The notes beneath the pieces are model-generated. The model saw only the letters and a program-made list of their open reading frames with translations, was not told the origin of the DNA and ran no database searches. The position numbers and the translations under genes are program-made. A stretch of DNA of 64,000 nt from Squalus acanthias. Its lineage: Eukaryota. Location: assembly GCA_030390025.1 (NCBI GenBank), contig CM059431.1:116624001-116688000 (forward strand), read 5' to 3'. Of this stretch, positions 5,363 through 61,465 are shown in pieces (position 1 is the first letter of the stretch; every line of letters begins with the position of its first letter).

Positions 5363-5510
5363 GGAATCATACAGCACAGAAGGAGGCCATTCAGCTCATC
5401 GTGGCTATGCCGGCTCTTTGAAAGAGTTACCCAATTAGTCCCACTCCCCTACTCTTTCCTCATAACCCTGCAAACTTTTCCTTTTCAAGTATATATCCAG
5501 TTCCCTTTTA
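5363..5510 (-). repeat. CR1-type LINE 3' end fragment
   Basis: acagcacagaaggaggccattcagc motif is the reverse complement of the CR1 3' UTR at ~20400-20445. Confidence 0.6.
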
Positions 5511-5820: not shown

Positions 5821-6413
5821 TAGAGCGAATTTTACGTGCCACTTATCAGCTCAAGCCTGGGTGTTGTCCAGGTCTTGCTGCGTGCGGGATCATGCATGAA
5901 GAATGGTCAATTGGGCGTGGTACCACAGGATCTGCCATTCCTATGGAGACTTATCCAGCACAAGTCCGAGCCTTCAGGGATAAAGGAATAAAAAAGAAGA
6001 TTTAAAAAAATCAAACATAATCCATAAAAAAGGATTTTTTCTTCAGTACTCTATTTCTTATGGTCCTTAAATATTTTACTTATCATATTTTACTTTTAGT
6101 TTGTTCTTAGGATGTGGGCAACACTGGCATGGCCACATTTATTACCCATCACTAGTTGCCATGGGAAGGTGACAGTAGGCCTTCTTGGCTGGTAGCAAGA
6201 GATAATTAAGAGTCAACACCCTTTTGAAAGTTACTATAAATCTGCTTCCACCACCCTTTCAGGCAGTGCATTCCAGATCAATACAACTTGCTACACAAAA
6301 AAACCCTCCTCATCTCCCAAATGGTTCTTTTGCCAATTACTTTAATTCTGTGTCCTCTGGTACCAGACCCCCCTGCCAGTGGAAACAATTGCTTCTTATT
6401 TACTCTAGCAAAA

Positions 6414-18985: not shown

Positions 18986-19320
18986 TTTCAAATAAAACTG
19001 TTGGACTATAACCTGGTGTTGTGCGACCTCTCAATTTCATTACCAGAGGCATAGAGTACAAAAGCAATGAAGTTATGATGCACCTTTATAAAACACTGCT
19101 TTGGCCTCAACTGGAGTATTGTGTCCAATTCTGGGCACCGCAGTTTAGGAAGGATGTGAAGGCCTTAGAGAGGGTGCAGAAAAGATTTACAAGAATGGTT
19201 CTAGGGATGAGGGACTTCAGTTACGTGGATAGACTGGAGAAGCTGGGGTTGTTCTCCTTAGAGCAGAGAAGGTTGAGAGGAGATTTCATAGTGGTGTTTA
19301 AAATTGTGAGAGGCCTGGAC

Positions 19321-20102
19321 GGTAAGACATGCGGAAATCGCCCCGTCCAACAGTTTCCAAAGTTCAGACCTGTCGAACAGACAACACAAAACCCAATGAA
19401 TCTGTGAAACTTCTTTCACTTAAACATCAGCAAGAGATTACAAGTAAGCATCCAACAGTTATGTAGCGTATAATAATTCCCAATTATACCTCAGCATACA
19501 CAGAGCTATCCCTTTACTTTAAGCTCAAGCAAAACATCACATGTGTACTAACACCAGAAGTGGTCAATCCGGCAGTGACTAGACGTATGATTTCTGGCAA
19601 CTAACCAGGTCGCCCGGCTGCAGCCCCGAGTGTCTTGAAACAGCATCTTTTATACCCCAAAATTTGGCTACCCTCCCACTGTATACGTGTTGTTTTACAT
19701 GTCCCTAACTATATGGATATAATCTTCATTAGTTGTTTTTTTCAGTTACTCTTATCAATAGTCCGTTGAGCATTCATGGGCCTTCAAGGTTGGTTTTCCA
19801 TGGTCTGAAGATGTTTCCATAATTCAATAGTCTGTTCCCACAGGACTCTCAATGCATGCCTTCCTTATCTTGGTAAAAGGCAGCTGGCAGCCTTTCACAG
19901 CTTACAACCGTAACAGTTCATTTAGCAGAAAGTCTCTGTTCCTGCCCAAGGTCTCCTTTATCTGTCAATAGTTTTCATACAAAAATTCTCACAGGAACCA
20001 ACCTCTCAGCTTCCCGAAGCATGCTGGTATATTAAAATGTGGCTAACTTTTTAAGTTTGGTCAAGTTACAGAAAAAGTTATAGCAAATTGTTTGTTCTTA
20101 GA
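19321..20102 (-). mobile_element. Solo LTR of the env-bearing element family
   Basis: Near-identical to 28429-29217; CR1 resumes exactly after it; flanks GGAC/AGAC (4-bp TSD, one mismatch); TATAAAA on minus near 19650. Confidence 0.85.
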
Positions 20103-20308
20103 AGACAGAGTAGATAGAGAGAAAGTGCTCCTATTGGCGGACGGGTCGAGAACCAGAGGACACAGATTTAAGGTGATTGGCAGAAGAACCAAAGGCGACA
20201 TGAGGGAAAACTTTTTTATGCAGCGAGTGGTTAGGATCTGGAATTCACTGCCTGAAAGGGTGGTGGAGGCAGATTCAATCATGGCTTTCAAAAGGAAATT
20301 GAATAAGT

Positions 20309-21376
20309 ACCTGACGAAAAAAAGTTTCAGGGCTACGGGGAAAGCGTGGGGGAGTGGGACTACCTGATGTGCACTTGCAGAGAACTGGCATGGGCTCGAC
20401 GGGCTGAATGGCCTCCTTCTGTGCTGTAACCATTCTATGATTCTATGAATACAGAAGATAATGGCATGTTGCTTATCCCATGTTGGATTTGATCAATTGT
20501 GAAGCCTGTTTAAGTCAGCTCTGGAGCCAAGCTATTACCATTTCTGTGTGCAGGCCATTTCATTATTTGAAAACTGCATTGCGATTGCAAATAATTGGAT
20601 CCATTCGCTGAATAATGACCCTAATTGCTATTTTTGCAACACCAGGAAATCCGTGTCATTATTTGAAGCCCATGTTGGAAGCTGGCAGCCTCAACCCACA
20701 CCAGATGACATGACACTGATTTATCCAGGTGTCAACTGACCTTTTATCACTTCAGTTGTTGATGCACCACCCCCGCCATTTATTTAATAGGTTACCAGCG
20801 GCATTATGATCGAAAAACCTAGACCTTACAATATATTACAAGGCACAGTTAGTTTGTATTATTTATCAGCTAGTTCAGTTGGTAACGATGCTGTCACTGG
20901 GCCAGAGTTGTAGGTTCAAGTCCTCCATCATGACTGCAATTCATAGTCGAGGCTGACACTCCAGTGCAGTATTGAAAGGATACTGAATAATTGGGGCTGC
21001 TTTCCTTCAGATGTGACTTTAAACCAAAAGCCTGCTTAATTGTTCAGGTGGATGTTAAAATCTGATGATATTATTTGAAGAAGAGCGGGGAGTTTGTCCA
21101 ATGTCCTGGCCTCCGCCAACAATACCTGAACAAATAGATTAACTGGTCACTCATGGAATTGACATTTGTCAGATGGTTCTGGCGCAGAACAGCTACGCAG
21201 TTTGCCTACATAACAACACCCACTGCACTTCACTAAGTAATTCAATGGCCGGAATTTTGTGGGGTCCGTGCGGGCGCGATTGGAGGTGGGTCAGGTGGGA
21301 AATTTGAAATAAATTGGAGCGGGTCAGGAACCCGCTGTCATCCTGCCACCACGCACCTGTCCCTCAGGCGTGTTTG
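20309..21376 (+). repeat. Direct duplication, copy 1 (CR1 tail, unique DNA, old SINE, Harbinger left end)
   Basis: Aligns by eye to 29398-31166; near-identical ORFs 20548-20739 and 29638-29829. Confidence 0.9.
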
Positions 21377-21482
21377 TAACATTTTAAGTTTGGTCAAGTT
21401 ACAGCAAAATTTATTGCAAATTGTGTGTTCTTAGAAGTCTACCCTCAAGTGGCTGTGCACCAGAATCAAGGCTCACAGGCAC

Positions 21483-24385
21483 TTACAACTTGTAGGCTTT
21501 GTCTTCTTCCTTTGGTGTCTTCTGCAACAGTTTAATCCACTCTTGCTGCTTGCGTCTCCTGTTGACTCAACAAGTTATCGTTAGTAAATATAGCACAAAC
21601 ACCAACTGAACAAGGACCAAAACGTGGGAAATAATTCTTTTCCATGGATGAACCTCAATACTCACACCAATATCCCACCAGGACTAATCGTCCCCGACCT
21701 TAAGGATTGCTTTACGCAGTTCACGATTTTTCTGGGCCAGGGTATATTAGTAATTTTGGGACTGACTAACGCGTTTCATTAACTCTACCAAATGTTCTGG
21801 CAGAGGTGGAATGTCATAGCCGAGCCGAGTCACATACTGGTGTAATTGCTCTTTTAACGCATCTTCTACAGCGATATCTACTTGCCTATGCGAATAAATG
21901 CTGAATAAAATCCGCGCCCCAAGTCTTACAGGCTGACTGGGGTAAAACAAAAAGTTCCCGCCACAATAGATATGTCAGGTTTTTACCGTACTGGTATTCC
22001 CAGTGCATAGTGGTGACACAATATTCACCCTCCCATCGGTACGCAGATCCTACGGGGAAATGCTGTCCTGCAATCATTTTCATGGTGCAGTTCCATTCTA
22101 TCCCATCCCAATCAAACCTGCATGCAGGGGCTGCACATTCTACCTTGTCATAAGGGCAGTTGAATGTGTCCTGCGTTTGAGCACACCCGATAAGATCTGG
22201 GCCACCCATGTGGTCCCATCCGCTCTGGTCACGTATTTTGGGGGTTCGTCATACCTTATTAAGTGATCTCTCTGATGTACTATATTCTTCATGCAGAATA
22301 GAGGATTTGGGGTCGCATTTTTGGTCAAAATGGGATAATACAATACCGTATCTAACAGGGTGAAGTTGTTTTTTTCCTGCAAATGGCATCCATGTTTCAC
22401 CGGGTACACCTGTACCAACCCCCTGACTTTACACATATTCATGGTAAATTGGTAAGTGAACATTGCCCTTAGATGTCGGTTAGTCATCACGAGGGAAGAA
22501 AAGAAAGAAAGACTTGCATTTATATAGCGCCTTTCACGACCACCGGACGTCTCAAAGCGATTTACAGTCAATTAAGTACTTTTGAAGTGGAGTCACTGTT
22601 GTAATGTGGGAAACGCGGCAGCCAATTTGCACACAGCAACGTGGTAATGACCAGATAATCTGTTTTTTTTAGTGATGTTGATTGAGGGATAAATATTGGC
22701 CAGGACACCGGGGATAACTCCCCCTGCTCTTCTTCGAAATAGTGCCATGGGATCTTTCATGTCCACCTGAGAGAGCAGACGGGACCTCGGTTTAGCGTCT
22801 CATCCGAAAGACGGCACCTCCGACAGTGCAGCACTCCCTCAGCGCTGCACTGGAGTGTCAGCCTAGCTTTATGTGCTCAGGTCACTGGAGTGGGATTTGA
22901 AACTACAACCTTCTGACTCAGAGGCGAGTGTGCTACCCACTGAGCCACAGCATGCAGCTGCCCTTCAGCAATGCTCTGCAGGCTTTCACGGGCTTGTTCC
23001 ACTAACCAAGATCCATACATTACACACACATGATTTTGCTCGGCCTCACTAGAGGCATTCCGATCCTCCTTTAAAATTTGATTTATCTTTTTAGCATGGG
23101 ATTCTAAATGTTTAACCACATCCTGCAGATGAATGGTTATAATTTGGTCCTCTTCCAATTCCTCCTGTTCTAGACCATTCATTTTATTCAAAATTTCCCT
23201 CAAACGATTTCTAACCGCCTTTACGGATTGATCCAAATTAGCCAAATCAAGGCTATTAACCAGGAAGGTTCTGGTATTAAAAACAGTGGCTGCATCATTT
23301 ATCAGACCCCGTCGCCTTCTGATATGGTTCCCTTTAATCCCGTAACCAACATCATTTTCTTCAATGATCTCGGTACTATTTTCCCCAAAGTTATCGTTAA
23401 ATCCATTACCATCCCCTGAGCCCTTGCGATATAACGGTTCTCATTCCGATTCTGCCAATGTTATGCTGGCTCTTTCCCCAAAATCCCTCTATTAACTCCT
23501 GCATCATCCTCCCATATAACCGCGCTGTCTCTAGTTTGCACCAGTTCGGTATTCCCACCTCAGTCTGATACAATATTACCGGCACCACCTTGTGATGCAC
23601 ATCATGGTACAATATTAATCCGAGTTGGGATCTCTACCAACCCATTTGTCGGTCCCGGGGTGTGTTTAGGGCAAGTGACCTGGGTTGTATGTTGTCCTTC
23701 CCGGGATTGTGTTTTATTTATAGGGGGAGGGGTTTTTGGTCAAACTTTTAAATCTACTGCATGTATAACCACACTTCCGTCACCATGATAGGTGCTAATA
23801 CCGGTATCGTTGTTATACCATTGATAGAGTTCCTTGGCCCTATGGTGGGCAAACATCGTACAATTGGTCACATCCCTTTCAATCATAGACAAGTCGTCCA
23901 AATCATCCGACTGGAACCTATCTGACACTCCACTTGGGCTTACACATCCGTAAATTCCCTCATGAATTTTCCACCATCGGGGCCAGCACAACAGTGTCTC
24001 CCGCTGCTCGGGATTGGGTCGGCTTCCTACATTCCCCCGAGGGTTCCCTATCTGACAATGCCTTGAATGGTTACCTGGTTCTGCTTGTAAAAACCATACC
24101 CATGGCCAGGTGGGGCGATCTTTGCATTTTATGCATACCCTCCCTACCTTCCTGGATCTCATAAGTGGTAACCCATACTGTTGCTGAACACGTGGTTTCA
24201 CAATCACCCTTGATGTACTGGAGGGTAATGTTTCGAGTGACGTTCCAGGGTGGTGTCTCCGGAGCAACTGCAATCGAACTATTATAGGGAAAATAGTTAG
24301 TGTTGGTCCAGTATGCCGAATAGGCTGACTTGGATTCTTCGATATAGAGCAGAATCCTGATCATTGACCAGAATAATTCCTTCAT
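21483..24385 (-). pseudogene. env: Envelope / class I fusion glycoprotein (frameshifted, SINE-interrupted)
   Basis: N-terminal hydrophobic start, N-glycosylation sequons, furin-type RRRR (23309-23320) followed by GLINDAATVF and a heptad repeat, Cys-rich region (21886-22490), second helix, TM IISHVLVLVQLVFVLYLLTIT (~21570-21635), basic tail. Confidence 0.75.
22496..22951 (-). mobile_element. Full-length tRNA-derived Deu-domain SINE (SacSINE1-like) inserted in env
   Basis: A box TGGCTCAGTGG, B-box-like GTTTCAAATCC, Deu-like body, (TTTC)n tail; env-like peptide continues on both sides. Confidence 0.85.
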
Positions 24386-24505
24386 TTTATACAGTTCAAC
24401 CTCTCAATACTGATGTATTTTTTAAAACAAAACAAAACGGGACTTGCTACTTTTTTTTTACTGTATCGGGCAATTTTCAACTCCTACCACTGATGTCTTT
24501 TTATT

Positions 24506-25545
24506 TCATTTACTACGTCGTGGGGTAGGAGGTGTCTGTTGGATTTGTCTGCGGACAGGAGGTGGTTCCGGGCCTGGGGATGAGGAGGTTTCTACAGCTC
24601 CCATGTCCTGTCCACCTTCATCTGGATCATACTGTACCTGTGGAGGCACCATTTCAGGCAAGGGCGCATCATTGGGTGGGGGTACCCCGCTAGGTACCCT
24701 TTCTTCATCATCCCACTGGAGAGGATAAATCTGGCTCACCATGCTCATAATTGTGGTTTGTCTTCTTGAACTGCTAGTGGGCTGAAAATGCCTCATCTGT
24801 TTAATATGAAACCATTTAATTTTCTTAGGTAACCGAATCGCATACACCATAGGACTGGCTTTATCAACAATGTTATATGGTCTCTTGTAAAGAGGTTCAA
24901 ACACTCCCACCCTCGCATAGTTTCGTACCATTACCTGGCTCCCCATCTCCCATTCCTGGGGTTTACTTGGAGCCAGGTGTAATCGGTTGTGTTGGTGAGC
25001 CTTCCCAATGTTGTGGGCGGCCCTCAGGTGTATCCCCTTCAAAGTTTCCCAGAGGTCGCTCAGGAATTTGTCCCGAGTCACCCCCTTAACCTGCTTGTCA
25101 GTTAACGTGGTGACCAACAGGTGTGTGGGGGTTTGGATGGGTCTCCCCGTTACCAATTCGTGTGGGGAATGACCCGTTCCTTTGGATCTGTTACTACGTA
25201 TCTCCACAAGGATTAGGGGAAGTACCTCATCCCACTTAGTGTGCTGTTCGTTTAATTCCTTTTGCAGGGCCAACTTCAACGTATGGTTCATTCTTTCCAC
25301 AATCCCCGATGATTGTGGGTTTTGGGTCACATGCCATTTCCCTTTTATTCCAAGCAATTTCAGAGTGGCTTGCATTACCTGACCTGTAAAATAATTTCCC
25401 TGGCCTGACTCTACCATGCAAGGAAGTCCCCATCTGGAGAATACCTCTCTAACTAGGGTCTTGGCTGTCCACAATGCTGTGGCCGACTTGCGCGGGAAAG
25501 CTTCTACCCACCTGGTAATCTTGTACCATCAACACTCATCTGGCC
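24506..25545 (-). pseudogene. Retroviral/Gypsy-type integrase (core + GPY/F), N-terminus lost
   Basis: VEAFP...VFSRWGLP..VESGQG(SDQG decayed)..PQSSGIVERMN..TGHSPHELVTGRP..FEPLYKRPY. Confidence 0.9.
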
Positions 25546-26771
25546 CCCTGCTTAAAAGGAAAAACAGAAAAATCCATTGTGGCTTTCCTGCCAGCCCAAT
25601 GGGTTAATTGTCAATTCCTGATTCCCTTCAGTCACTGTGGGGAAACATCCACTCAAGTTAAAAAAATTGAAAATTTAACATTGCCCAAAATGTTCACAAA
25701 ACACACAGCTGGTTGTGAAAAGAGTTAACTTTTTTTTTTCAAAAGAAGACAAACCCAGATCCCATCAATTAATGTTAGCTTGTGTCACACAACTTCTCAC
25801 AGCTTTCAGGTAAATTTAAAACAAAATCTTTTTGCCTTTAAAACTTACAAAGATTCTGATCAATTCAATTCAGCAGGTAAAAAGCGTCAGACATCATAAA
25901 CATTCTGTGAAACAACTCCACACACAACAATAGCATTTCCTTTTTTTCCCCCCTGGTCACACATTCTTGAAATTGGTCAGAAATTTTAAAAATACCAATT
26001 GTTGATGTGATTGCCTCATGTCCGGAACTCGAGGCTTTCACACAATTTACACCAACCAGAATTTCACCGTGGCCACAATAAAAGTCTGCTTTAAACAGGT
26101 TAATTAACCTCAATAACTCTAATTTAATTCAAACCAATATCTTAAACTAACCAGTACCGCTTGAAAAAGTGGGAGGAGCTTCCCTCAGCTTGTAGCTTCG
26201 AAACATTCATACAAGTTTTTTTCAGACATCACTACACTGAAAAGAGAAAAGGGACAGAACCTTTCCTTTTCTCCTGTCTTTATTTCACCATAGGCTACTT
26301 GTCAAAAACTTAGAAAGTGGGCATCTCGGACATGCAGTAACCAAATTAAGAAAACAGTGCTTTGTAAACGTTCAATTAATTTAAAATCAAATCAAACAAT
26401 AGCTATTTTTTGTAATACAATTAGAACAAAGTACTTTCAAAAAGTCCAAATTAATTTCTACCAGATACGATTAGAAACCATGGCAACTGTAACTTCAAGG
26501 CTGAAGCTTATCTTTTGTAAAACAAACTGCTTCTGATTTACAGTTTGCTGTACAAGCTGTCCCAGTCAAAATATATCCACAGCAGTGTCTTTAACTTAAA
26601 AATACAAATCACAAAGTTTCTCCCACTTCTAGGTGCACAATCTTAAATTGAAATGAACATATTTAACACATCCATACTCTTAAAACTTCCAACATCCAAC
26701 AAAGGATTAAACGGCTTTAGCTCCATGCACAGAAAAGTGGGTGGAACTAAAACAAGCACAACAGACACTTT

Positions 26772-27547
26772 GGGCTGGATTTTGTCTTGGGGTCGGGTTG
26801 GGGTCGGGTAATCCGCATTTCGTGTTTCCCCCCCGACTCCAGAGTAATGTGGATGCCTGATGCAATTTTCACTTAATTGGGCAATTGAGTTGCAGCATGT
26901 GGGAACCCATGACCTAATTAGTGGTTTCAGTCTGAAACCCGCCTCTGATGATGTCATCATTGCTGACTGCCTGCTCTCAGAGATTGTCTGGCTGCTGGTG
27001 AGAGAGGACCTTTCTGCATTGCTTCTGATGTGAGTGGACCTGGATGCATATATATATATATATATATGAATGTGAGAGAGAGAGAGAGAGAGAGAGAGAA
27101 TTTTTTGCATCCAAGTCCTCTTACACCAAATCCCATGACATTGAATGTAGCAGTATCAGAGGCGACTTTCACACCTCATACTACTACTACTTTCATCACA
27201 TCTCCGTTGTAATAGTGGACTTGCAGCCGATAGTCAGCTATCCATTTGTGCTCCCGCCAGGTTTCACTGGAGTGTTTCACACCAGGCATACTTCACGTCA
27301 GAAAAGGGTTAAACTAGCTGCAATGTTTCAAAATAGCATTATAGGCCCAATTTAGGGCTTGTTAAGTGCTTTAATGGCCTCTCCCGCCTCTTGGAGGCGG
27401 GACGGAGTCGGGAACCCCGCGACTGATTTTGTCAAAATTGCGTGGAGGCGGGATGGAGTCGGGATGGGGTCGGAAACCCCGACCCCGCAAATTTAACCCC
27501 CCACACGCCTCCAAACCCGACTCCATGGGTCATTCAATATCCAGCCC
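26772..27547. mobile_element. Harbinger MITE family A, inverted relative to 354-1090; contains (TA)n and (GA)n
   Basis: TIR GGGCTGGAT...ATCCAGCCC; reverse-complement similarity to 354-1090. Confidence 0.85.
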
Positions 27548-27699
27548 TCCCTCTCAAAGACAGACTTTCAGACAAACTTCTTAAAATTGATAGTCAGGAA
27601 AACTTCCACACTTTAATAGACACTTTCACACAAACTGAAATTCAGCATCCTTTAAGGTTCCTTTCACTCAGCAAATCTTGTGTTTTATTTGTCTCGGCA

Positions 27700-28389
27700 T
27701 AGAAGCTGATAGCTTCCGTGTCGGTAAAACTTTAAGTTTCTCTTTTTTTTCCTACTTTTAAATCGGCATCTCAGCAGCTTTTCCTGGCTCCCCAAATCCC
27801 TGTTTTTTTCCTTCCTTTGCTGAGTTTTCAGATTGGTTAGCCTGCAACGTAGATCCTTTCCCCTCTTAACTCCCACTCTCTCTCCTGCTCTTTATGCTTC
27901 ACCTCCAGTTTCTTAATCCACTTATTACATTCACTGTGGTCACTACGAGCACTCCGTTCCTCTAGAGCCTGTTTCTGGGTGACCCTAAATGCAACCTTCA
28001 GGTCCTCATTGATCTTTTCTGCCTGTTCTGCCTGATGTCTCTGTTTGGATAGTTCTTTTGACACGGTATCGTACTGATTCTGATTATTTATACACTGGCT
28101 ATCGAGTTGTTGTTCTTTATTATACCACCTCTCCTCCTGTTCTAACTTTTCCTCGAGCCGGGTTCTACGTTCCCTTTCTTACTCTGTTTCTTTCCTTAAC
28201 TTGATCTTTACCCTTTCATCAGATTTAAACTGCCTCTGATAGGCCAATAACCAAACAGATGTCCTTACCCTTGGCCCACACATGGACCCTTGTGTCCACT
28301 GTCCAGCCTCCAATACTGGATCATTACCGTCGAAGAGGCAACTTCCCTGTCACATACTTAGTGACTAACTCATCCATTGACTTTGCCAT
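27700..28389 (-). pseudogene. gag N-terminal coiled-coil region (degenerate)
   Basis: ATG 17 nt downstream of PBS (MAKSMDELV...), then E/K/Q/R-rich heptads ERRTRLEEKLEQEE...SKELSKQRHQAEQAEKINEDLKVAF. Confidence 0.6.
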
Positions 28390-28405
28390 TGTCTGATCTG
28401 AATGG

Positions 28406-28423
28406 GTCCCTGTTCAGGCGCCA
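28406..28423 (-). promoter_or_regulatory. Primer binding site, tRNA-Lys(UUU)
   Basis: TGGCGCCTGAACAGGGAC, one mismatch to the canonical TGGCGCCCGAACAGGGAC, 5 nt from the LTR end. Confidence 0.9.
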
Positions 28424-28428
28424 AAATC

Positions 28429-29217
28429 TGTTTGACATGCGGAAATCGCCCCTCGCCCCGTCCAACAGTTTCCAAAGTTCAGACCTGTCGAACAGACAAC
28501 ACAAAACCCAATGAATCTGTGAAACTTCTTTTACTTAAAAATCAGCAAGAGATTACAAGTAAGCATCCAACAGTTATGTAGCGTATAATAATTCCCAATT
28601 ATACCTCAGCATACACAGAGCTATCCCTTTACTTTAAGCTCAAGCAAAACATCACATGTGTACTAACACCAGAAGTGGTCAATCTGGCAGTGACTAGACG
28701 TATAATTTCTGGCAACTGACCAGGTCGCCCGGCTGCAGCCCCGAGTGTCTTGAAACAGCATCTTTTATACACCAAAATTTGGCTACCCTCCCACTGCATA
28801 CGTGTTGTTTTACATGTCCCTAACTATACGGATATAATCTTCATTAGTTGTTTTTTTCAGTTACTCTTATCAATAGTCCGTTGAGCATCTGTGGGCCTTC
28901 AAGGTTGGTTTTCCATGGTCTGAAGATGTTTCCACAGTTCAATAGTCTGTTCCCACAGGACTCTCAAAGCATGCTTTCCTTATCTTGGTAAAAGGCAGCT
29001 GGCAGCCTTTCACAGCTTACAACCGTAACAGTTCATTTAGCAGGAAGTCTCTGTTCCTGCCCAAGGTCTCCTTTATCTGTCAAAGGTTTTCGTACAAAAA
29101 TTCTCACAGGAACCAACCTCTCAGCTTCCCGAAGCATGCTGGCATATTAAAATGTGGCTAACTTTTTAAGTTTGGTCAAGTTACAGCAAAAGTTATAGCA
29201 AATCGTGTGTTCTTAGA
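28429..29217 (-). repeat. LTR of env-bearing element
   Basis: ~790 bp, highly similar to 19321-20102; PBS on one side, PPT+env tail on the other. Confidence 0.9.
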
Positions 29218-29397
29218 AGTCCACCCTCAAGTGGCTGTGCACCCAAATCAAGGCTCACAGGCAGTTACAACTTGTAGGCTTTGTCTTCTACCTTCGGGGT
29301 CTTCTGCAACAGTTTAATCCACTCTTGCTGCTTGTGTCTCCTGTTGACTCAACAAGTTATCGTTAGTAAATATAACACAATCACCAACTGAACAATG

Positions 29398-31166
29398 ACC
29401 TGAAGGAAAAAAAAAATCAGGGCTACGGGGAAATGGCAGGGGAGTGGGACTAGCTGAAGTGCTCTCGCAGAGAGCTGGCATGGGCTCGACGGGTTGAATG
29501 GCCTCCTTCTGTGCTGTAACCATTCTATGATTCTATGAATACAGAAGATAATGGCATGTTGCTTATCGCATGTTGGATTTGATCAATTGTGAAGCCTGTT
29601 TAAGTCAGCTCTGGAGCCAAGCTATTACCATTTCTGTGTGCAGGCCATTTCATTATTTGAAAACTGCATTGTGATTGCAAATAATTGGATCCATTTGCTG
29701 AATAATGACCCTAATTGCTATTTTTGCAACACCAGGAAATCCGTGTCATTATTTGAAGCCCATGTTGGAAGCTGGCAGCCTCAACCCACACCAGATGACA
29801 TGACACTGATTTATCCAGGTGTCAACTGACCTTTTATCACTTCAGTTGTTGATGCACCACCCCCACCATTTTTATTTAATGGGTTACCAGCGGCATTATG
29901 ATCGAAAAACCTAGACCTTACAATATATTACAAGGCACAGTTAGTTTGTATTATTTATCAGCTAGTTCAGTTGGTAACGATGCTGTCACTGGGCCAGAGT
30001 TGTAGGTTCAAGTCCTCCATCATGACTGCAATTCATAGTCGAGGCTGACACTCCAGTGCAGTATTGAAAGGATACTGATTAATTGGGGCTGCTTTCCTTC
30101 AGATGTGACTTTAAACCAAAAGCCTGCTTAATTGTTCAGGTGGATGTTAAAAATCTGATGATATTATTTGAAGAAGAGCAGGGAGTTTGTCCAATGTCCT
30201 GGCCGACATTACTCCAGCAATACATAAGAATGTAAGAACATAAGAAACAGGAGCAGGAGTAGGCCAATCGGCCCCTCGAGCCTGCTCCGCCATTCAATAA
30301 GATCATGGCTGATCCAATCTTGGCCTCAACACCACTTTCCCGCTCTCTCCCCATACCCCTTCACTCCCTTGTAGTTCAAATGTCTGTCAATCTCCGCCTT
30401 GAATATATTCAATGACTCCGCCTCCACAGCTCTCTGGGGTGGAGAATTCCAAAGATTCACGACCCTCTGAGAGAATAAATTCCTCCTCATCTCCGTCTTC
30501 AATGGGCCACCCTTTATTCTGAATCTATGCCCCCTAGTTCTAGATATTTCCACTAGGGGAAACATCCTCTCAGCATCCACCCTGTCAATCCCCCTCAGAA
30601 TCTTATATGTTTCAATAAGATCACCTCTCATTCTTCTAAACTCCAATGAGTATAGGCTCAACCTTTCGTCATACGTCAACCTCTTCATCCCAGGAATCAA
30701 CCTAGTGAACCTTCTCTGCACTGCCTCCAATGCAAGTATATCCTTCCTTAAATATGGAGACCAAAACTGTATGCAGTACTCCAGGTGCAGTCTCACCAGC
30801 GCCCTGTAAAGTTACATTAAAACTTCCTTACTTTTATACTCCATACCGCTTGCAATAAAGGCCAACATTCCATTCGCCTTCCTAATTACTTGCTGTACCT
30901 GCATGCTAACTGTTTGTGTTTCATGTACTAGGACCTCCAGATCCCTTTGTACCGCAGCATTTTGTACCTGAACAAATAGATTAACTGGTCACTCATGGAA
31001 TTGCCATTTGTAAGATGGTTCTGGCGCAGAACAGCTACGCAATTTGCCTACATAACAACACCCACTGCACTTCACTATTAATTCAATGGCCGGAATTTTG
31101 TGGGGTCCATGCGGGTGAGATTGGAGGCGGGTCGGGAACCGCGCACCTTTCCCTCGGGCGCGTTTG
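29398..31166 (+). repeat. Direct duplication, copy 2 (with extra CR1 insert)
   Basis: Matches 20309-21376 apart from the insertion at ~30223-30964. Confidence 0.9.
30223..30964 (-). mobile_element. 5'-truncated CR1 LINE
   Basis: ORF 30326-30796 LEYCIQFWSPYLRKDI...TRGH...WNS; (CATAAGAA)n tail; absent from duplicate copy 1. Confidence 0.9.
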
Positions 31167-31522
31167 CCGGTGTGGCAGTGACCCGAACGACAGAGACGGA
31201 CGACCTAATTCAAATCATTATCACCTTGTTGTCAGACCCTTAATTGCCTTTTTTAGTCTCCCTTTCAAATTTCCCTGGCTGCCCATGGGATTCACACAGC
31301 TCGGGAACCACGTCTGTCAGCCTGAGGCGGGAGTTGAGTGGCCATTGCTCCAGCTAATTAGATGCCAGCAAGAAATGTACTATAAAAGCTCCCACCTCAC
31401 AGCTGATCACTTTCCTCAGGCAGAAGCTGTTGCTGACTGCATTCCCAGCACAGTTTTAGCTATCTACAAGCTGCAAGTGTTTGCAGCAAAGTCAACATCC
31501 AGTCTCACCTCATTGGTAGAAC

Positions 31523-55059: not shown

Positions 55060-55496
55060 AGGAGCTGACACTGAGCCATAGAATGAAAGAAGGGATCAAA
55101 AGCCTGTTTAAAACAATGGATTTAAAGAAGGTTTTCAAAGATTGAGAGAAATAGAAAGGTGGAAGAGTTCAGAGAGGGAGTTTTAGAAGCCTGGAAGCCT
55201 GAAGGCTCTGCCACCAATTATGGGACAAAGGGAGGAGTGGATGGTCAAAAGGCTAAGAGTTGGAGTACCAAATGCTGTGGGGCCAGACTTAAGGCTTGAA
55301 GAGGTTACACAGGTAGGGTGGGGCAAAGCCATGGAGTGATTTGAATATGAGCATGAAGAGCCAATGCAGGTCTGCAAGGATGGGAGTGACGAGCAAGTGA
55401 GACAGGATTCAGGAAGCTGAACATTAAACAAGTTGAAGTTTGTAGAGGGCGGAAATGGGGACTGGGAAGGAAGGCATTGGAGAATGCGAGTCTAGA
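55060..55496 (-). repeat. Old L2 fragment
   Basis: Minus-strand SRLAFSNAFL...IIGGRAF, similar to 14690-15060. Confidence 0.6.
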
Positions 55497-55522
55497 GGAA
55501 TAATAAGGGGAAAAAAACATTA

Positions 55523-58021
55523 GTGGGCGTAGTCTATAGGCCTCCGAACAGTTGCAACTCTATTGGACGGAGTATCAATCAGGAAATAGTTGAGGCATGT
55601 AATAAGGGAACATCTATAATTATGGGGGATTTTAACTATCATATTAATTGGACAAATCAAATGGGGCAGGGCTGCCTTGAGGATGAGTTCATTGAGTGTA
55701 TTAGGGATGGGTTTCTTGAGCAGTATGTAACTGAACCGACCAGGGGGCAAGCAACCTTAGATCTGGTCCTGTGTAACGAGACAGGATTAATTAAAAATGT
55801 CCTAGTAAAGGATCCCCTTGGAATGAGTGACCATAACATGGTTGAATTCCATATTCAATTAGAGGGTGAGAAGGTTGGATCTCAAACAAGCGTGCTAAGC
55901 TTGAATAAAGGAGACTATGAAGGTATGCGAGCGGAATTGAGTAGAGTGGATTGGGAAAATAGATTAAAGGGTAAGACGACACATGATCAGTGGTGTACAT
56001 TCAAGGAGTTATTTTACAACTTCCAAAAAAAATATATTCCACTGAAAAGAAAAGGGTGTAAAAGAAAGGACAGTCATCCGTGGCTAAGTAAAGAAATTAA
56101 GGATAGTATTCGACTAAAAACAAGGGCATATAAGGTAGCGAAATCTAGTGGGAGGACAGAGGATTGGGAAAACTTTAAAAGGCAGCAAAAAATAACAAAA
56201 AGATTGATTAAGAAAGGGAAGATAGATTATGAAAGTAAATTAGCAAAAAATATAAAAACAGATAGTAAGAGTTTTTATAGTTATATAAAAAGAAAAAGGG
56301 TGGCTAAAGTAAATGTTGGTCCCTTAGAGGATGAGACCGGGAAATTAATGGTGGGAAATATGGAGATGGCAAAAACACTGAATGAATATTTTGTATCAGT
56401 CTTTACAGTAGAGGAAACTAAGAATATCCCAACACTGGACAAACAGGGGGCTATAGGGGGAGAGGAGCTAAACACGATCAAAATCACTAAGGAAGTGGTA
56501 CTCGGTAAAATAATGGGACTCAAGGCGGATAAATCACCTGGACCTGATGGCTTACATCCTAGAGTCTTGAAGGAAGTGGCGGTAGGGATTGTAGATGCAT
56601 TGGTAATAATTTTTCAAAACTCCCTGGATTCCGCTAAGGTCCCGGCAGACTGGAAAACTGCTAATGTAACACCCTTATTTAAAAAGGGCAGTAGACAGAA
56701 GGCTGGTAACTATAGACTGGTTAGCCTAACATCTGTGGTAGGTAATATTTTGGAGTCCATTATTAAGGAAACAGTAACAGGACATTTGGATAATCATAAT
56801 TTAATAGGACAAAGTCAGCATGGTTTTACGAAGGGGAAGTCATGTTTGACAAATTTGCTGGAGTTCTTTGAGGAAGTAACATATAGAGTGGATAAAGGGG
56901 AACCAGTGGACGTAGTGTATTTAGACTTCCAAAAGGCATTTGACAAGGTGCCACACAAAAGATTATTGCTTAAGGTAAAAAATCACGGGATTGGGGGTAA
57001 TATTCTGGCATGGATAGAGGATTGGCTATCTAACAGAAAGCAAAGAGTTGGGATAAATGGTTCATTCTCAGACTGGCAATCAGTAACTAGTGGTGTTCCA
57101 CAGGGGTCAGTGCTGGGTCCCCAACTCTTCACAATCTATATTAACGATTTGGAGGAAGGGACCAAGTGTAACATATCAAAATTTGCAGATGATACAAAGA
57201 TGGGAGGGAAAGTAGTGAGTGAGGAGGACATAAAAAACCTGCAAGGGGACATAGACAGGCTAAGTAAGTGGGCAGAGATTTGGCAGATGGAATACAACAC
57301 TGGAAAGTGTGAGGTGATGCACTTTGGCAGGAAAAATCCTAGAGCAATTTATTATCTTAATGGCAAGAAACTGGAGAGTACTGAAGTGCAAAGGGATCTG
57401 GGGGTCCTGGTGCACGAAACTCAAAAGGTTAGTATGCAGGTGCAGCAAGTGATTAAGAAGGCAAATGGAATGTTGGCTTTCATTGCTAGGGGGATAGAAT
57501 ATAAAAATAGGGAGGTATTGCTTCAGTTGTACAAGGTATTGGTGAGACCGCACCTGGAATACTGCATACAGTTTTGGTGTCCTTACTTAAGGAAAGATAT
57601 CCTTGCTCTCGAGGCAGTGCAAAAAAGGTTCACTCGGTTAATCCCGGGGATGAGGGGGTGGTCATATGAGGAGAGGTTGGGTAGATTGGGACTCTACTCA
57701 TTGGAGTTCAGAAGAATGAGAGGCGATCTTATTGAAACATATAAGATTGTGAAGGGGTTGGATCGGGTGGATGCGGGGAGGATGTTCCCGATGACGGGTG
57801 AGACGAGAACTAGGGGACATAGTCTTAGAATAAGGGGCTGCTCTTTCAAAACTGAGATGAGGAGGAACTACTTCACTCAGAGGGTGGTAGGTCCATGGAA
57901 TATGCTGCCACAAAAAGCTGTAGAAGCTACAACATTAATTAAATTTAAAACAGAAATAGACAGTTTCCTGGAAGTAAAGGGCATTAAGGGTTACGGGGAG
58001 CGGGCAGGAATTTGGACATGA
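55523..58021 (+). CDS. CR1 ORF2 (5'-truncated, open over 832 aa)
   Basis: YRPP, GDFN, SDH, RT motifs, C-terminal TRGH; element spans ~55497-58257. Confidence 0.9.
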   Translation: MGVVYRPPNSCNSIGRSINQEIVEACNKGTSIIMGDFNYHINWTNQMGQGCLEDEFIECIRDGFLEQYVTEPTRGQATLDLVLCNETGLIKNVLVKDPLGMSDHNMVEFHIQLEGEKVGSQTSVLSLNKGDYEGMRAELSRVDWENRLKGKTTHDQWCTFKELFYNFQKKYIPLKRKGCKRKDSHPWLSKEIKDSIRLKTRAYKVAKSSGRTEDWENFKRQQKITKRLIKKGKIDYESKLAKNIKTDSKSFYSYIKRKRVAKVNVGPLEDETGKLMVGNMEMAKTLNEYFVSVFTVEETKNIPTLDKQGAIGGEELNTIKITKEVVLGKIMGLKADKSPGPDGLHPRVLKEVAVGIVDALVIIFQNSLDSAKVPADWKTANVTPLFKKGSRQKAGNYRLVSLTSVVGNILESIIKETVTGHLDNHNLIGQSQHGFTKGKSCLTNLLEFFEEVTYRVDKGEPVDVVYLDFQKAFDKVPHKRLLLKVKNHGIGGNILAWIEDWLSNRKQRVGINGSFSDWQSVTSGVPQGSVLGPQLFTIYINDLEEGTKCNISKFADDTKMGGKVVSEEDIKNLQGDIDRLSKWAEIWQMEYNTGKCEVMHFGRKNPRAIYYLNGKKLESTEVQRDLGVLVHETQKVSMQVQQVIKKANGMLAFIARGIEYKNREVLLQLYKVLVRPHLEYCIQFWCPYLRKDILALEAVQKRFTRLIPGMRGWSYEERLGRLGLYSLEFRRMRGDLIETYKIVKGLDRVDAGRMFPMTGETRTRGHSLRIRGCSFKTEMRRNYFTQRVVGPWNMLPQKAVEATTLIKFKTEIDSFLEVKGIKGYGERAGIWT

Positions 58022-58338
58022 GTCTAGGTTCGGATCGGTCATGGCCCTGTGGGTAGTGGAGCGGGCCCAGGGACTGTGTAGCCTGATTCTGCTCCTATTT
58101 CGTGTGTGCAATTCTGTTAGATGCAGGAGATGGTTCTGTGATAGATAGTAGATTGGCGGTTAGGATCAGATCAGCCATGATCTTATTGAATGGCGGAGCA
58201 GGCTCGAGGGGCCGATTGGCCTACTCCTGCTCCTATTTCTTATGTTCTTATGTTCTTAAAAGTATGAACAAGGATTTCAGTGGCAGTGGGGGTGAGGTAG
58301 GGGCCCAGGCAAGCAATATTCCAGAGATGGAAGTCACA

Positions 58339-58463
58339 GGGCTGGATTTTGATACTGGGGCGGGTTGGGGTCGTGTTATCCACCCGACTGCAATTGGATG
58401 TGGGAGATTGATGCAATTATCACCTAATTGGGCAATTGAATTCCAGCATGTGGGAACCCATGA
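58339..58463. repeat. Truncated end of MITE family A (repeated at 61783-61907)
   Basis: GGGCTGGATTTTGATACTGGGGCGGG... is the reverse complement of ~950-1090. Confidence 0.85.
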
Positions 58464-59647
58464 AGATTAAACTAACTAGTGGGGGGGAGGTTCCTAGAGA
58501 GCAAATAATAAAAATGACAACAGAGAAGGTCATAGTCTTAGGTAGCAGTGGGGAAATTAAAAACCAGAGTGTGTCAGGAAGGGGCAGAAGGTATGGAGTA
58601 AAAGGTAAAGTAATAAAAAGGGCAAAAGCAGGAACTAAGTGTCACAAAACATATTTGAAATTTCTCTATCTGAATGCATGTAGCATTCGTAACAAAATAG
58701 ACGAGTTAATGGCAGAAATAACTACATATGGGTATGATCTTGTGGCCATTACAGAAACATGGCTGCAGGGTGACAATGCCTGGGAATGAAACATACCAGG
58801 TTATTTAATGATCAGGAAGGACAGGCAGGAAGGAAGGGGAGGTGGGGTGGCTATGTTAATAAAGGAAGGAATCACTGTAATACAGAGAAATGATATTGGG
58901 TCAAAAGATCAGGATAATGAAACAGTTTGGGTGGAGATAAGGAATAATAAGGGGAAAAAAACACTAGTGGGCGTAGTCTATAGGCCTCCGAACAGTTGCA
59001 ACTCTGTTGGACGGAGTAGCAATCAGGAAATAGTTGAGGCTTGTAATAAGGGAACATTTATAATTATGGGGGATTTTAACTATCATATTAATTGGACAAA
59101 TCAAATTGGGCAGGGCTGCCTTGAGGATGAGTTCATTGAATGTATTAGGGATGGGTTTCTTGAGCAGTATGTAACTGAACCGACCGGGGGCAAGCAACCT
59201 TAGATCTGGTCCTGTGTAACGAGACAGGATTAATTAAAAATGTCCTAGTAAAGGATCCCCTTGGAATGAGTGACCATAACATGGTTGAATTCCATATTCA
59301 ATTAGAGGGTGAGAAGGTTGGATCTCAAACAAGCGTGCTAAGCTTGAATAAAGGAGACTATGAAGGTATGTGAGCGGAATTGAGTAGAGTGGATTGGGAA
59401 AATAGATTAAAGGGAAAGATGATACATGATCAGTGGTGTACATTTAAGGAGTTATTTTACAACTTCCAAAAAAATATATATTCCACTGAGAAGAAAAGGG
59501 TGTAAAAGAAAAGACAGTCATCCGTGGCTAAGTAAAGAAATTAAGGATAGTATTTGACTAAAAACAAGGGGCTCTAAGGTAGCCAAATCTAGTGGGAGGA
59601 TAGAGGATTGGGAAAACTTTAAAAGACAGCAAAAAATAACAAAAAGA

Positions 59648-61465
59648 TTGATTAAGAAAGGGAAGATAGATTATGAAAGTAAATTAGCAAAAAATATAAA
59701 AACAGATAGTAAGAGTTTTTATAGTTATATAAAAAGAAAAAGGGTGGCTAAAGTAAATGTTGGTCCCTTAGAGGATGAGACCGGGAAATTAATGGTGGGA
59801 AATATGGAGATGGCAAAAACACTGAATGAATATTTTGTATCAGTCTTTACAGTAGAGGAAACTAAGAATATCCCAACACTGGACAAACAGGGGGCTATAG
59901 GGGGAGAGGAGCTAAACACGATCAAAATCACTAAGGAAGTGGTACTCGGTAAAATAATGGGACTCAAGGCGGATAAATCACCTGGACCTGATGGCTTACA
60001 TCCTAGAGTCTTGAAGGAAGTGGCGGTAGGGATTGTAGATGCATTGGTAATAATTTTTCAAAACTCCCTGGATTCCGCTAAGGTCCCGGCAGACTGGAAA
60101 ACTGCTAATGTAACACCCTTATTTAAAAAGGGCAGTAGACAGAAGGCTGGTAACTATAGACTGGTTAGCCTAACATCTGTGGTAGGTAATATTTTGGAGT
60201 CCATTATTAAGGAAACAGTAACAGGACATTTGGATAATCATAATTTAATAGGACAAAGTCAGCATGGTTTTACGAAGGGGAAGTCATGTTTGACAAATTT
60301 GCTGGAGTTCTTTGAGGAAGTAACATATAGAGTGGATAAAGGGGAACCAGTGGACGTAGTGTATTTAGACTTCCAAAAGGCATTTGACAAGGTGCCACAC
60401 AAAAGATTATTGCTTAAGGTAAAAAATCACGGGATTGGGGGTAATATTCTGGCATGGATAGAGGATTGGCTATCTAACAGAAAGCAAAGAGTTGGGATAA
60501 ATGGTTCATTCTCAGACTGGCAATCAGTAACTAGTGGTGTTCCACAGGGGTCAGTGCTGGGTCCCCAACTCTTCACAATCTATATTAACGATTTGGAGGA
60601 AGGGACCAAGTGTAACATATCAAAATTTGCAGATGATACAAAGATGGGAGGGAAAGTAGTGAGTGAGGAGGACATAAAAAACCTGCAAGGGGACATAGAC
60701 AGGCTAAGTAAGTGGGCAGAGATTTGGCAGATGGAATACAACACTGGAAAGTGTGAGGTGATGCACTTTGGCAGGAAAAATCCTAGAGCAATTTATTATC
60801 TTAATGGCAAGAAACTGGAGAGTACTGAAGTGCAAAGGGATCTGGGGGTCCTGGTGCACGAAACTCAAAAGGTTAGTATGCAGGTGCAGCAAGTGATTAA
60901 GAAGGCAAATGGAATGTTGGCTTTCATTGCTAGGGGGATAGAATATAAAAATAGGGAGGTATTGCTTCAGTTGTACAAGGTATTGGTGAGACCGCACCTG
61001 GAATACTGCATACAGTTTTGGTGTCCTTACTTAAGGAAAGATATCCTTGCTCTCGAGGCAGTGCAAAAAAGGTTCACTCGGTTAATCCCGGGGATGAGGG
61101 GGTGGTCATATGAGGAGAGGTTGGGTAGATTGGGACTCTACTCATTGGAGTTCAGAAGAATGAGAGGCGATCTTATTGAAACATATAAGATTGTGAAGGG
61201 GTTGGATCGGGTGGATGCGGGGAGGATGTTCCCGATGACGGGTGAGACGAGAACTAGGGGACATAGTCTTAGAATAAGGGGCTGCTCTTTCAAAACTGAG
61301 ATGAGGAGGAACTACTTCACTCAGAGGGTGGTAGGTCCATGGAATATGCTGCCACAAAAAGCTGTAGAAGCTACAACATTAATTAAATTTAAAACAGAAA
61401 TAGACAGTTTCCTGGAAGTAAAGGGCATTAAGGGTTACGGGGAGCGGGCAGGAATTTGGACATGA
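59648..61465 (+). pseudogene. CR1 ORF2 RT portion, second unit (upstream part has stops/frameshifts)
   Basis: Peptide identical to last 605 aa of 55523-58021; upstream pieces 58436-58789, 58808-59203. Confidence 0.9.

Follow-up and report, generated by a model that had tools for sequence, protein, structure and literature searches.

Lokiretroviruses have been defined by the position of their reverse transcriptase (RT), by an envelope glycoprotein (Env) that matches Pfam PF00523, and by an integrase (IN) that is close to CGIN1 (Wang & Han 2020, PMC7947760; our statements on this and the other cited papers refer to the parts of them that were available). The Env of foamy viruses has been found to be structurally F-like (Fernandez et al. 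2024, PMC11468914). In sharks, 'foamy-like' endogenous retroviruses (FLERVs) cluster with the FLERV of Xenopus tropicalis (XtrFLERV), only pol having been detected in both (Aiewsakun & Katzourakis 2017, PMC5512871). Lineage I of the elephant-shark endogenous retroviruses (CmiERV) clusters with the snakehead retrovirus SnRV (Han 2015, PMC4422223), and in the catshark element ERV-Spuma.0-Sca, the Gag and Env domains were not detected (Song et al. 2023, PMC10699275). Here, we compare with these groups the remnant of an endogenous retrovirus (ERV) that lies on the minus strand of a 64-kb stretch of the Squalus acanthias genome (G000:C7:116624001-116688000; genome size, 3.7 Gb). This whole stretch is referred to as the window hereafter.

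We consider it probable (roughly 70%) that the element is a dead member of a shark ERV family that is old, multi-copy and non-autonomous, that its Env is of the F/foamy type, and that it belongs to a clade inside Retroviridae and is not a lokiretrovirus. The element adds a well-characterised member to a kind of fish/amphibian retrovirus that is already known, and two features are noteworthy: the mosaic RT/IN signal, and the existence of an env-bearing family without a polymerase. An initial annotation, made from the letters of the window, had proposed a lokiretrovirus or a sister group; every feature that it listed was found again where it had placed it. For the present analysis, 14 sister copies were fetched from the same shark genome and mapped onto the window element. 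A young complete relative, whose RT is close to that of a Pol denoted P0002, is also present in this genome.

The Env glycoprotein and its predicted fold

In the window, env and its parts occupy the following positions (HR1 and HR2 denote the two heptad-repeat helices, SU the surface subunit, TM the transmembrane anchor, LTR a long terminal repeat, SINE a short interspersed element, and ORF an open reading frame).

24385-21483, minus strand: env, ~810 codons without the insert; ATG at 24385, final stop at 21485-21483; from three-frame reading and tblastn with the sister-copy protein P0001
23320-23309, minus strand: RRRR furin-type cleavage site, separating SU from the fusion subunit
22956-22498, minus strand: SINE-like insert of 458 bp at the end of HR1; absent in 13 of the 14 sister copies, the 14th being truncated there
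~21881-21750, minus strand: HR2, the second helix; from three-frame reading
21635-21570, minus strand: TM; coding runs into the start of the 3' LTR, and the same peptide is readable at the 5' LTR (ORF 29349-29582)

The protein runs in the order signal peptide, SU of ~300 aa, furin-type site, HR1, Cys-rich beta domains, HR2, TM and short tail, and its frame is damaged by five frame changes, five in-frame stops and the SINE-like insert. The part downstream of the cleavage site is ~430-455 aa long. The layout described in the initial annotation, namely an env of ~800 codons in which RRRR is followed by a heptad, a long Cys-rich region, a second helix and only then the TM, with ~450 aa after cleavage, was thus confirmed. 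The lack of a CX6CC motif also held, since it is absent from the ectodomain in all six family Env proteins checked; four of these six carry R-x-K/R-R at the equivalent place. In the family Envs that could be read whole (P0014, P0023 and an open 853-aa Env of the young family), SU is ~260-410 aa long. The peptide directly past RRRR is weakly hydrophobic.

The fold was examined with P0001, a natural 586-aa ORF of a sister copy (L027:2204-3961), not with a repaired window env. P0001 spans the C-terminus of SU, RRRR, HR1, the Cys-rich region, HR2 and TM. A phmmer search of it against the PDB sequences gave chance matches only, and Pfam gave nothing specific. By contrast with a single-sequence model, which was unusable (pLDDT 35), the AlphaFold2 (AF2) model built from a 39-sequence alignment (38 relatives plus P0001) reached a pLDDT of 72, and ~90 in the beta-rich core. 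Foldseek with this model against PDB returned 255 matches at E<=1e-3, and all of the matches listed were paramyxo-/pneumovirus F proteins (best, 1ztm_B, E 6.8e-12). VIA-align gave Z 10.5 for the post-fusion Nipah F 8dmj_A (rmsd, root-mean-square deviation, 5.5; 293 residues aligned) and Z 8.3 for the foamy Env 8rm0_A (rmsd 5.2; 275 aligned); for the pre- and post-fusion foamy Env structures, Z was 8.3 and 8.1, and the matches with Z 8-10.5 extend over P0001 residues 45-~500. The BFVD matches were mononegaviral glycoproteins, baculovirus F, the Env of walleye epidermal hyperplasia virus 1 (WEHV-1; 2.5e-7) and feline foamy gp130 (2.3e-5).

Profile comparisons pointed in the same direction as the foamy matches. 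The family Env profile, run with hmmsearch against the PDB sequences, matched the foamy Env 8ozh_A (E 2.6e-4), and hhalign of the family against eight foamy Envs aligned 123 columns in the Cys-rich domains (91%, E 1e-6). These eight were drawn from IMG/VR genomes; four were scanned, and all four match Pfam Foamy_virus_ENV. Against the 1134-aa Env of L041, hhalign gave 92% and E 5.8e-7 over 276 columns, including the cleavage region. L041 (an IMG/VR record of 10,688 nt) is a fish-type retrovirus with a gag-stop-pol arrangement, an IN C-terminal domain of the murine leukaemia virus type and an Env without a Pfam domain. The homology to the L041 Env, together with the BFVD match to the WEHV-1 Env, suggests that F-type Envs are widespread among fish retroviruses.

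Among Pfam families, TLV_coat was matched by none of the 39 Env family members, while the control retrovirus L042 does match it; PF00523 was likewise matched by none of the 39 at E<=0.01, nor by P0001 or the open 853-aa Env. One of the 39 matches Baculo_F (E 1.1e-3). An exhaustive HMMER search of 1.84 billion representatives found 44 Env relatives at E<=1e-3. Ten proteins were looked up by name, and the named Env homologues among them are from the sharks Chiloscyllium punctatum (P0014), Mustelus asterias and Pristiophorus japonicus, the skate Rhinoraja longicauda, and the frogs Pelodytes ibericus and Mantella aurantiaca. A profile search of a 5.8-billion-protein set with alignment A1 gave no matches, even though family members were included in the set; coiled-coil words probably crowded its candidate list.

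At the fold level, Env is shown by the model to be a class I fusion glycoprotein of the F/foamy-Env type and not of the gamma type, in agreement with the F-like character read from its layout in the initial annotation. As far as profiles and the predicted structure tell, it is homologous to foamy virus Env. Two observations weigh against this assignment: Z values of ~8 can reflect a common arrangement (the F matches, at 9-10.5, do better without being overwhelming), and Pfam Foamy_virus_ENV (PF03408) was matched by none of the 39 members. Because of the latter, the relation to foamy Env is regarded as distant. The active trimer would be cleaved at RRRR, and the cleaved, metastable prefusion form would then refold into a six-helix post-fusion form and merge the membranes, as paramyxovirus F and foamy Env do.

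The provirus and its pol-less family

The other features of the provirus and of the block that splits its 3' LTR are as follows (PBS, primer-binding site).

29394-28429, minus strand: 5' LTR of ~966 bp, beginning TGTTCAG and ending ...ACA; from self-BLAST and alignment with the 3' LTR; it flanks the sister copies too
28423->28406, minus strand: PBS TGGCGCCTGAACAGGGAC, 5 nt past the LTR, with one CpG-type difference from the usual sequence of the family
28388-27685, minus strand: gag remnant, N-terminal coiled-coil part only; ATG at 28388; one frame change and one in-frame stop; capsid and nucleocapsid absent
27574-26772, minus strand: dispersed SINE-like repeat insertion, specific to the window copy; a further copy lies at 354-1095 of the window
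26771-25700, minus strand: non-coding family-specific segment of 1.1 kb between the gag and integrase remnants; no ORF and no Pfam match
25528-24506, minus strand: integrase remnant; of the catalytic core only the last third is left, followed by the C-terminal domain (SH3-like/GPY-F) and then a Pro/acidic tail
21612-21377, minus strand: first ~240 bp of the 3' LTR, 93.8% identical to 29400-29159
20105..21376, no strand assigned: block of 1.27 kb splitting the 3' LTR, outside the provirus; a duplicate of the upstream flank plus a fragment of a CR1-like long interspersed element (LINE)
20104-19321, minus strand: 3' LTR positions ~180-966, 97% identical to 29219-28453

The paired LTRs, the tRNA-type PBS, the gag/pol/env order and the many dispersed copies identify the element as an endogenous provirus. 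The direct repeats of 2 kb at 19338-21292 and 28453-31133 were also considered as LTRs and were rejected: the sister copies share only ~966 bp, which is therefore taken as the LTR length, and the remainder is duplicated flank. Apart from a ~760-bp insertion in the flank, the block splitting the 3' LTR is 96.5% identical to the upstream flank 29386-31165. The Kimura two-parameter distance is 0.062 for the first part of the 3' LTR (237 sites), 0.030 for the second part (777 sites) and 0.031 for the duplicated flank (815 sites), the last two being the same. The split 3' LTR is likely to reflect an older integration followed by a later local duplication; the LINE piece at 20107-20295 is accounted for by no scenario, and no history fits the split LTR in full. 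A clean target-site duplication was looked for around the provirus and not found, and the 3' LTR is rearranged.

Of the 14 sister copies, 12 have a PBS-like site, and three of these read TGGCGCCCGAACAGGGAC. The complement of TGGCGCCCGAACAGGGAC (15 nt, without CCA) has 420 matches in the genome, as compared with none for a reversed control, and at one sampled locus it coincides with the 3' end of a tRNA-Lys(ttt) gene of the same genome. Because of this identity, the primer tRNA, as read from the PBS, is tRNA-Lys(UUU), which specifies the lysine PBS noted in the initial annotation. The pattern of the tRNA-Lys(ttt) 3' end was also seen every ~1.78 kb at G000:C29:11697240-11721402, where one unit was confirmed as a tRNA-Lys(ttt) gene; the locus is probably an array of tandemly repeated tRNA genes. 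In the window itself, ARAGORN detected no tRNA, and Rfam matched no family over 19000-31500.

The internal order in the window is gag N-terminus, 1.1-kb non-coding segment, C-terminal half of integrase, and env; capsid and nucleocapsid, protease, RT, RNase H and the N-terminal half of integrase are missing. In tblastn, residues ~24-224 of the autonomous relative's Gag (624 aa) align with the gag remnant (~230 codons) at 25-39% identity. The ORF pieces of this remnant at 28349-28179 and 28178-27837 contain 54% charged residues with heptad-like spacing, and the description of the gag start as rich in heptads proved right; Pfam found no SMC or Spc7 domain in gag and gave weak generic coiled-coil matches only. 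The integrase ORF matches Pfam rve over profile positions 34-102 only, followed by the SH3-like C-terminal domain, and it starts at the equivalent of residue 957 of P0002. Of the GPY/F integrase claimed earlier, the domain stands, and the motif itself is degenerate in the window copy, the sister copies reading KGPY. The best match of this integrase among solved structures is that of the prototype foamy virus.

The same order of gag N-terminus, 1.1-kb segment, integrase C-terminus and env was found in 12 of the 14 sister copies, the other two being truncated upstream. Neither the window element nor any sister copy matches residues 1-956 of P0002; in the window element and 13 of the 14 copies, similarity to this Pol sets in at residue 957-1008. 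The initial annotation had suggested using the LTR to find copies that contain RT; no RT was found in any of the 14 sampled. The 27574-26772 insertion is present in none of them: 11 are contiguous there, one has a different insert and two lack the region. By contrast, every informative copy contains the 1.1-kb segment, which varies least of all parts of the family (6.9% mismatch vs 9.6-13.5% elsewhere). It has no similarity to the complete autonomous relative and its source was not found; it may be a cis-acting element. A DNA search of the genome, in which 40 of 934 candidates were scored, yielded 85 matching pieces, and 150 copies were scored in an env protein search. Thus, the family is a non-autonomous, high-copy deletion derivative. 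Its copies differ from the window copy by 7-14%, and on this ground its age would be tens of millions of years or more, a figure that hinges on the poorly known substitution rate of sharks (a study of elephant-shark ERVs assumed 2.2e-10 substitutions/site/year; Han 2015, PMC4422223).

Mismatches among the 14 copies were then counted by codon position, with no consensus built. In env, they number 637/569/1187 at positions 1/2/3 (rates of 0.086, 0.077 and 0.161; p 2.5e-63), and in the integrase remnant 239/272/503 (p 1e-27). The 1.1-kb segment, which served as a non-coding control, shows no periodicity (299/253/278; p 0.14). Because of the third-position excess in env and in the integrase remnant, much of the divergence between copies is attributed to a period of protein-level selection. 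Judged from codon positions, the pol-less lineage, or the parents repeatedly producing it, is shown to have evolved under such selection while spreading. Since the family has no polymerase, it was presumably copied with the Gag-Pol of a related complete virus; a helper-dependent lineage that would have borrowed Gag-Pol from a complete relative and retained its own Env is the most likely reading.

Two repeats in the window are recorded here as side observations. A 3' fragment of a CR1-like LINE lies at 20107-20428 and 29386-29518, and the 5' LTR of the provirus adjoins it; its ORF ends in RVV..WNSLP, a motif that we take to be typical of CR1-like LINEs. Related pieces are found at 5370-5509 and 6220-6406. 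A tandem repeat with a 3,444-bp period occupies 55496-64000 (55496-60556 vs 58940-64000, 99.5%) and sits where the GC skew is strongly positive (0.16-0.35 from ~46 kb on).

A young complete relative and the placement of the clade

The young family was sampled as L040, L039 and L075. At least 97 RT copies in the shark genome are 90-91% identical to P0002, in open frames of up to ~1500 aa. In a sampled copy, Gag is 624 aa long, begins with a coiled coil and contains a CCHC knuckle, and an in-frame stop and pol follow it; the knuckle is supported by Pfam zf-CCHC (E 0.0036, below the curated cut-off) and by the C-x2-C-x4-H-x4-C spacing in the ORF. P0002 contains RVT_1, RT_RNaseH/RT_RNaseH_2, RNase_H, Integrase_H2C2 and rve, including a dual RNase H (PF17917/PF17919 at 448-580 and PF00075 at 628-770) in the region that is deleted from the window copy. 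Among named proteins, those closest to P0002 are 'NYNRIN-like' proteins of frogs (97-98% of its length aligned at 40-42% identity) and proteins of Xenopus tropicalis and Latimeria. Most of the 108 env copies scored are open over ~840-860 aa and are 95-98% identical to the sampled copy. The idea that this family lacks a fusion subunit was rejected, one sampled copy being an exception to these frames. One open Env sampled from the young family aligns with P0001 along its full 586 residues at 38% identity (E 4e-135), and the integrase of P0002 is 63% identical to that of the window (57-63% is the range given by the integrase of the closest autonomous relative). Given these similarities in integrase and Env, the old pol-less and the young complete families are two branches of one retroviral group. 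The young complete family looks recently active, and a relative with open gag, pol and env matters for genome annotation and for the question of retrovirus activity in sharks.

Because the window copy has no RT, its placement rests on the Pol of this relative. The RT tree (41 rows x 412 columns; LG+G4; Gypsy outgroup) was built from 29 of 60 matched proteins and 12 viral Pol ORFs, with foamy, lentivirus-like and betaretrovirus-like genomes taken from IMG/VR and identified by their Pfam content. Lokiretroviruses are represented by one Pol, P0004, labelled by its long near-identical stretches to the consensus Pols in the Wang & Han supplement. In this tree, P0004 is sister to all canonical retroviruses (support 100/99), as published, and a shark-frog-coelacanth clade (83/99) lies inside the canonical retroviruses, in an unresolved split with L041, a gamma/epsilon-like group and foamy+beta+lenti; a mixture-model quick tree has the same topology. 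When P0004 and the shark clade were held together, the log likelihood (lnL) fell by 28.1, and the approximately unbiased (AU) test rejected that tree (p 0.0012). In the IN tree (43 rows x 360 columns), the window integrase joins the shark autonomous family (100/100). The window integrase also matches NYNRIN (E 1e-13), and the integrase-like domains of mammalian NYNRIN fall together with the 'NYNRIN-like' Pol proteins of frogs (94/72), so that the retroviral donor of NYNRIN may belong to a wider shark-frog-coelacanth-Loki integrase group. The RNase H tree gave no resolution. Taken by host pattern and domain content, the clade most likely is the published shark/frog 'foamy-like' or SnRV-like ERV group.

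Several points weigh against this placement. In the IN tree, the shark-frog-Xenopus-Latimeria group stands with the lokiretrovirus and mammalian NYNRIN (87/97), so that the element is in part Loki-like. The Loki side consists of the single Pol P0004, whose label comes from reading near-identical motifs in published consensus sequences. Joining the clade to the five mammalian foamy viruses costs 9.4 lnL, with a borderline AU p of 0.049; the constraint groups were named after the tree had been seen, and long branches lead to the foamy, beta and lenti rows. The relative by which the family is placed is only 57-63% identical to it in integrase and 38% in Env. The CCHC Gag of that relative and its one-frame gag-stop-pol are unlike those of true foamy viruses, and neither Spuma_A9PTase nor Gag_spuma was matched in P0002 or the relative's Gag, while the true foamy Pol L053 does match Spuma_A9PTase. 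Finally, the trees do not contain CmiFLERV, XtrFLERV, the fish FLERVs or the named SnRV, and the equation of the clade with the 'FLERVs' is an inference.

Membership of lokiretroviruses or a sister group, as put forward in the initial annotation, would make the element the first of its kind in cartilaginous fish, and we regard it as highly improbable. The F fold of Env, the dual RNase H of the relative, the grouping of the integrase with P0004 and NYNRIN (the Loki IN is reported to be closest to CGIN1; PMC7947760) and the coiled coil at the gag N-terminus, which recalls the 'Spc7-Gag-Pol' of Loki-Xtr in the supplement of that paper, all fit it. However, dual RNase H and F-fold Env occur in other retroviruses as well, and an F-like Env is not diagnostic of a lokiretrovirus because foamy viruses and another fish retrovirus (L041) share it. 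The RT of the relative lies inside the canonical retroviruses and Loki outside them, with the AU rejection given above; the integrase alone, in the phylogeny that the initial annotation had suggested, groups with Loki and NYNRIN. PF00523, a defining match of the Loki Env, is missing from all 39 members and from the open 853-aa Env. The published Loki Env consensus has an N-terminal subunit (F2) of only ~110 aa and a hydrophobic peptide right after RxKR (PMC7947760 supplement), neither of which is present here, and the family Env motifs IPPL[TSP] and WWD[VS] do not occur in that supplement. Wang & Han screened six chondrichthyan genomes, including that of Chiloscyllium punctatum, from which the Env homologue P0014 comes, and found none Loki-positive (PMC7947760 supplement), in line with the remark in the initial annotation that chondrichthyan examples are not known.

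Also improbable, to a lesser degree, is that the shark-frog-coelacanth clade is a separate major retroviral lineage of mosaic character, neither foamy-like nor Loki. Such a lineage would combine an RT of canonical type and an integrase of Loki/NYNRIN type with a coiled-coil Gag that bears a CCHC knuckle, and its F-fold Env would have a large Ig-like SU. The clade is one arm of the four-way RT split and joins no named group, its union with mammalian foamy viruses is rejected at the borderline, RT and IN give different neighbours, Gag and the gag-pol arrangement differ from those of foamy viruses, as does the PBS (Lys(UUU), not Lys1,2), and the 44 Env homologues have their named members among sharks, a skate and frogs alone. 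On the other hand, published Pol trees join elephant-shark and Xenopus elements as 'FLERVs' or place them near SnRV (PMC5512871, PMC4422223), with the same host pattern; the isolation may be a sampling effect, the fish FLERVs and named SnRV being absent from our trees; and the Env profile reaches foamy Env. The mismatch between RT and IN neighbours fits the published idea that integrase modules are swapped between retroviruses. A wider proposal, in which the clade, with this mosaic make-up, is a distinct ancient lineage bridging Loki and canonical retroviruses and the window family is a selected, helper-dependent 'satellite' provirus with its own Env, seems unlikely to us; taken together with the Env homologues of foamy viruses and other fish retroviruses, it would, if true, make the F-type Env ancestral to retroviruses and lokiretroviruses and not a one-off capture from Mononegavirales. 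As to the origin of the pol-less copies, a doubtful account is that full-length viruses gave rise to a spliced subgenomic (env-type) RNA which was reverse-transcribed repeatedly. It would explain why all informative copies have the same junctions and why purifying selection has marked env and even the truncated, presumably useless integrase piece. However, no full-length parent was among the 14 copies fetched, and the 1.1-kb segment, most conserved of all and without a counterpart in the complete relative, better fits a derivative of single origin with its own cis-acting element.

Comparison with known systems

The paramyxo-/pneumovirus F proteins are the best structural matches of the family Env and share with it the order of cleavage site, first heptad repeat (HRA), beta domains, second heptad repeat (HRB) and TM. 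The family Env differs from them in its 9-13% identity, in the lack of a Pfam match, in the weakly hydrophobic post-cleavage peptide, and in an N-terminal subunit ~3x longer, which may itself bind the receptor. The link between the fusion proteins of retroviruses and paramyxoviruses has been recognised only recently, and the element extends it with data from a chondrichthyan. With foamy Env gp130 (PDB 8rm0, 8rm1, 8ozh; PMC11468914), it has in common the F-type class I fold, furin cleavage and profile similarity in the Cys-rich region; unlike gp130, it has no long leader peptide and no Foamy_virus_ENV match, and it measures ~810-850 aa vs ~990. True foamy viruses also differ in their PBS, which is that of Lys1,2 and not of Lys(UUU).

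Lokiretroviruses are alike in their F-like Env, dual RNase H, NYNRIN/CGIN1-type integrase and the coiled coil before Gag. In contrast to them, the RT of the complete relative is not of the Loki type, Env has neither the PF00523 signal nor the short-F2 layout, and SMC/Spc7 was not detected. An F-like env alone is thus insufficient to call a lokiretrovirus.

The shark/frog foamy-like/SnRV-like ERVs occur in the same hosts (sharks, Xenopus, coelacanth), and their Pol likewise has RT, a Ty3-like RNase H/tether, RNase H and IN. Set beside each other by their descriptions, they are likewise old and multi-copy, with LTR divergence of a few percent. The published elements were described from pol or without Gag and Env domains in the accounts available, whereas here gag, env and the Env fold are assigned, and the window family is a pol-less derivative. 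A gag and an F/foamy-type Env would thus be assigned to shark/frog 'foamy-like' ERVs, which have so far been known mostly from pol. An endogenous foamy virus of cartilaginous fish was reportedly treated by Wang, Chen & Cui in 2023, and that work may already describe gag and env of this lineage.

Non-autonomous ERV families are known to be mobilised in trans, as ETn is by MusD in mouse, and the classic examples have lost env. Like ETn, the shark family is internally deleted, has kept its LTR and PBS signals intact, and has reached a high copy number without its own polymerase. Unlike ETn, it has retained a full-length env under selection, and a pol-less, env-bearing family of this kind represents an unusual ERV lifestyle.

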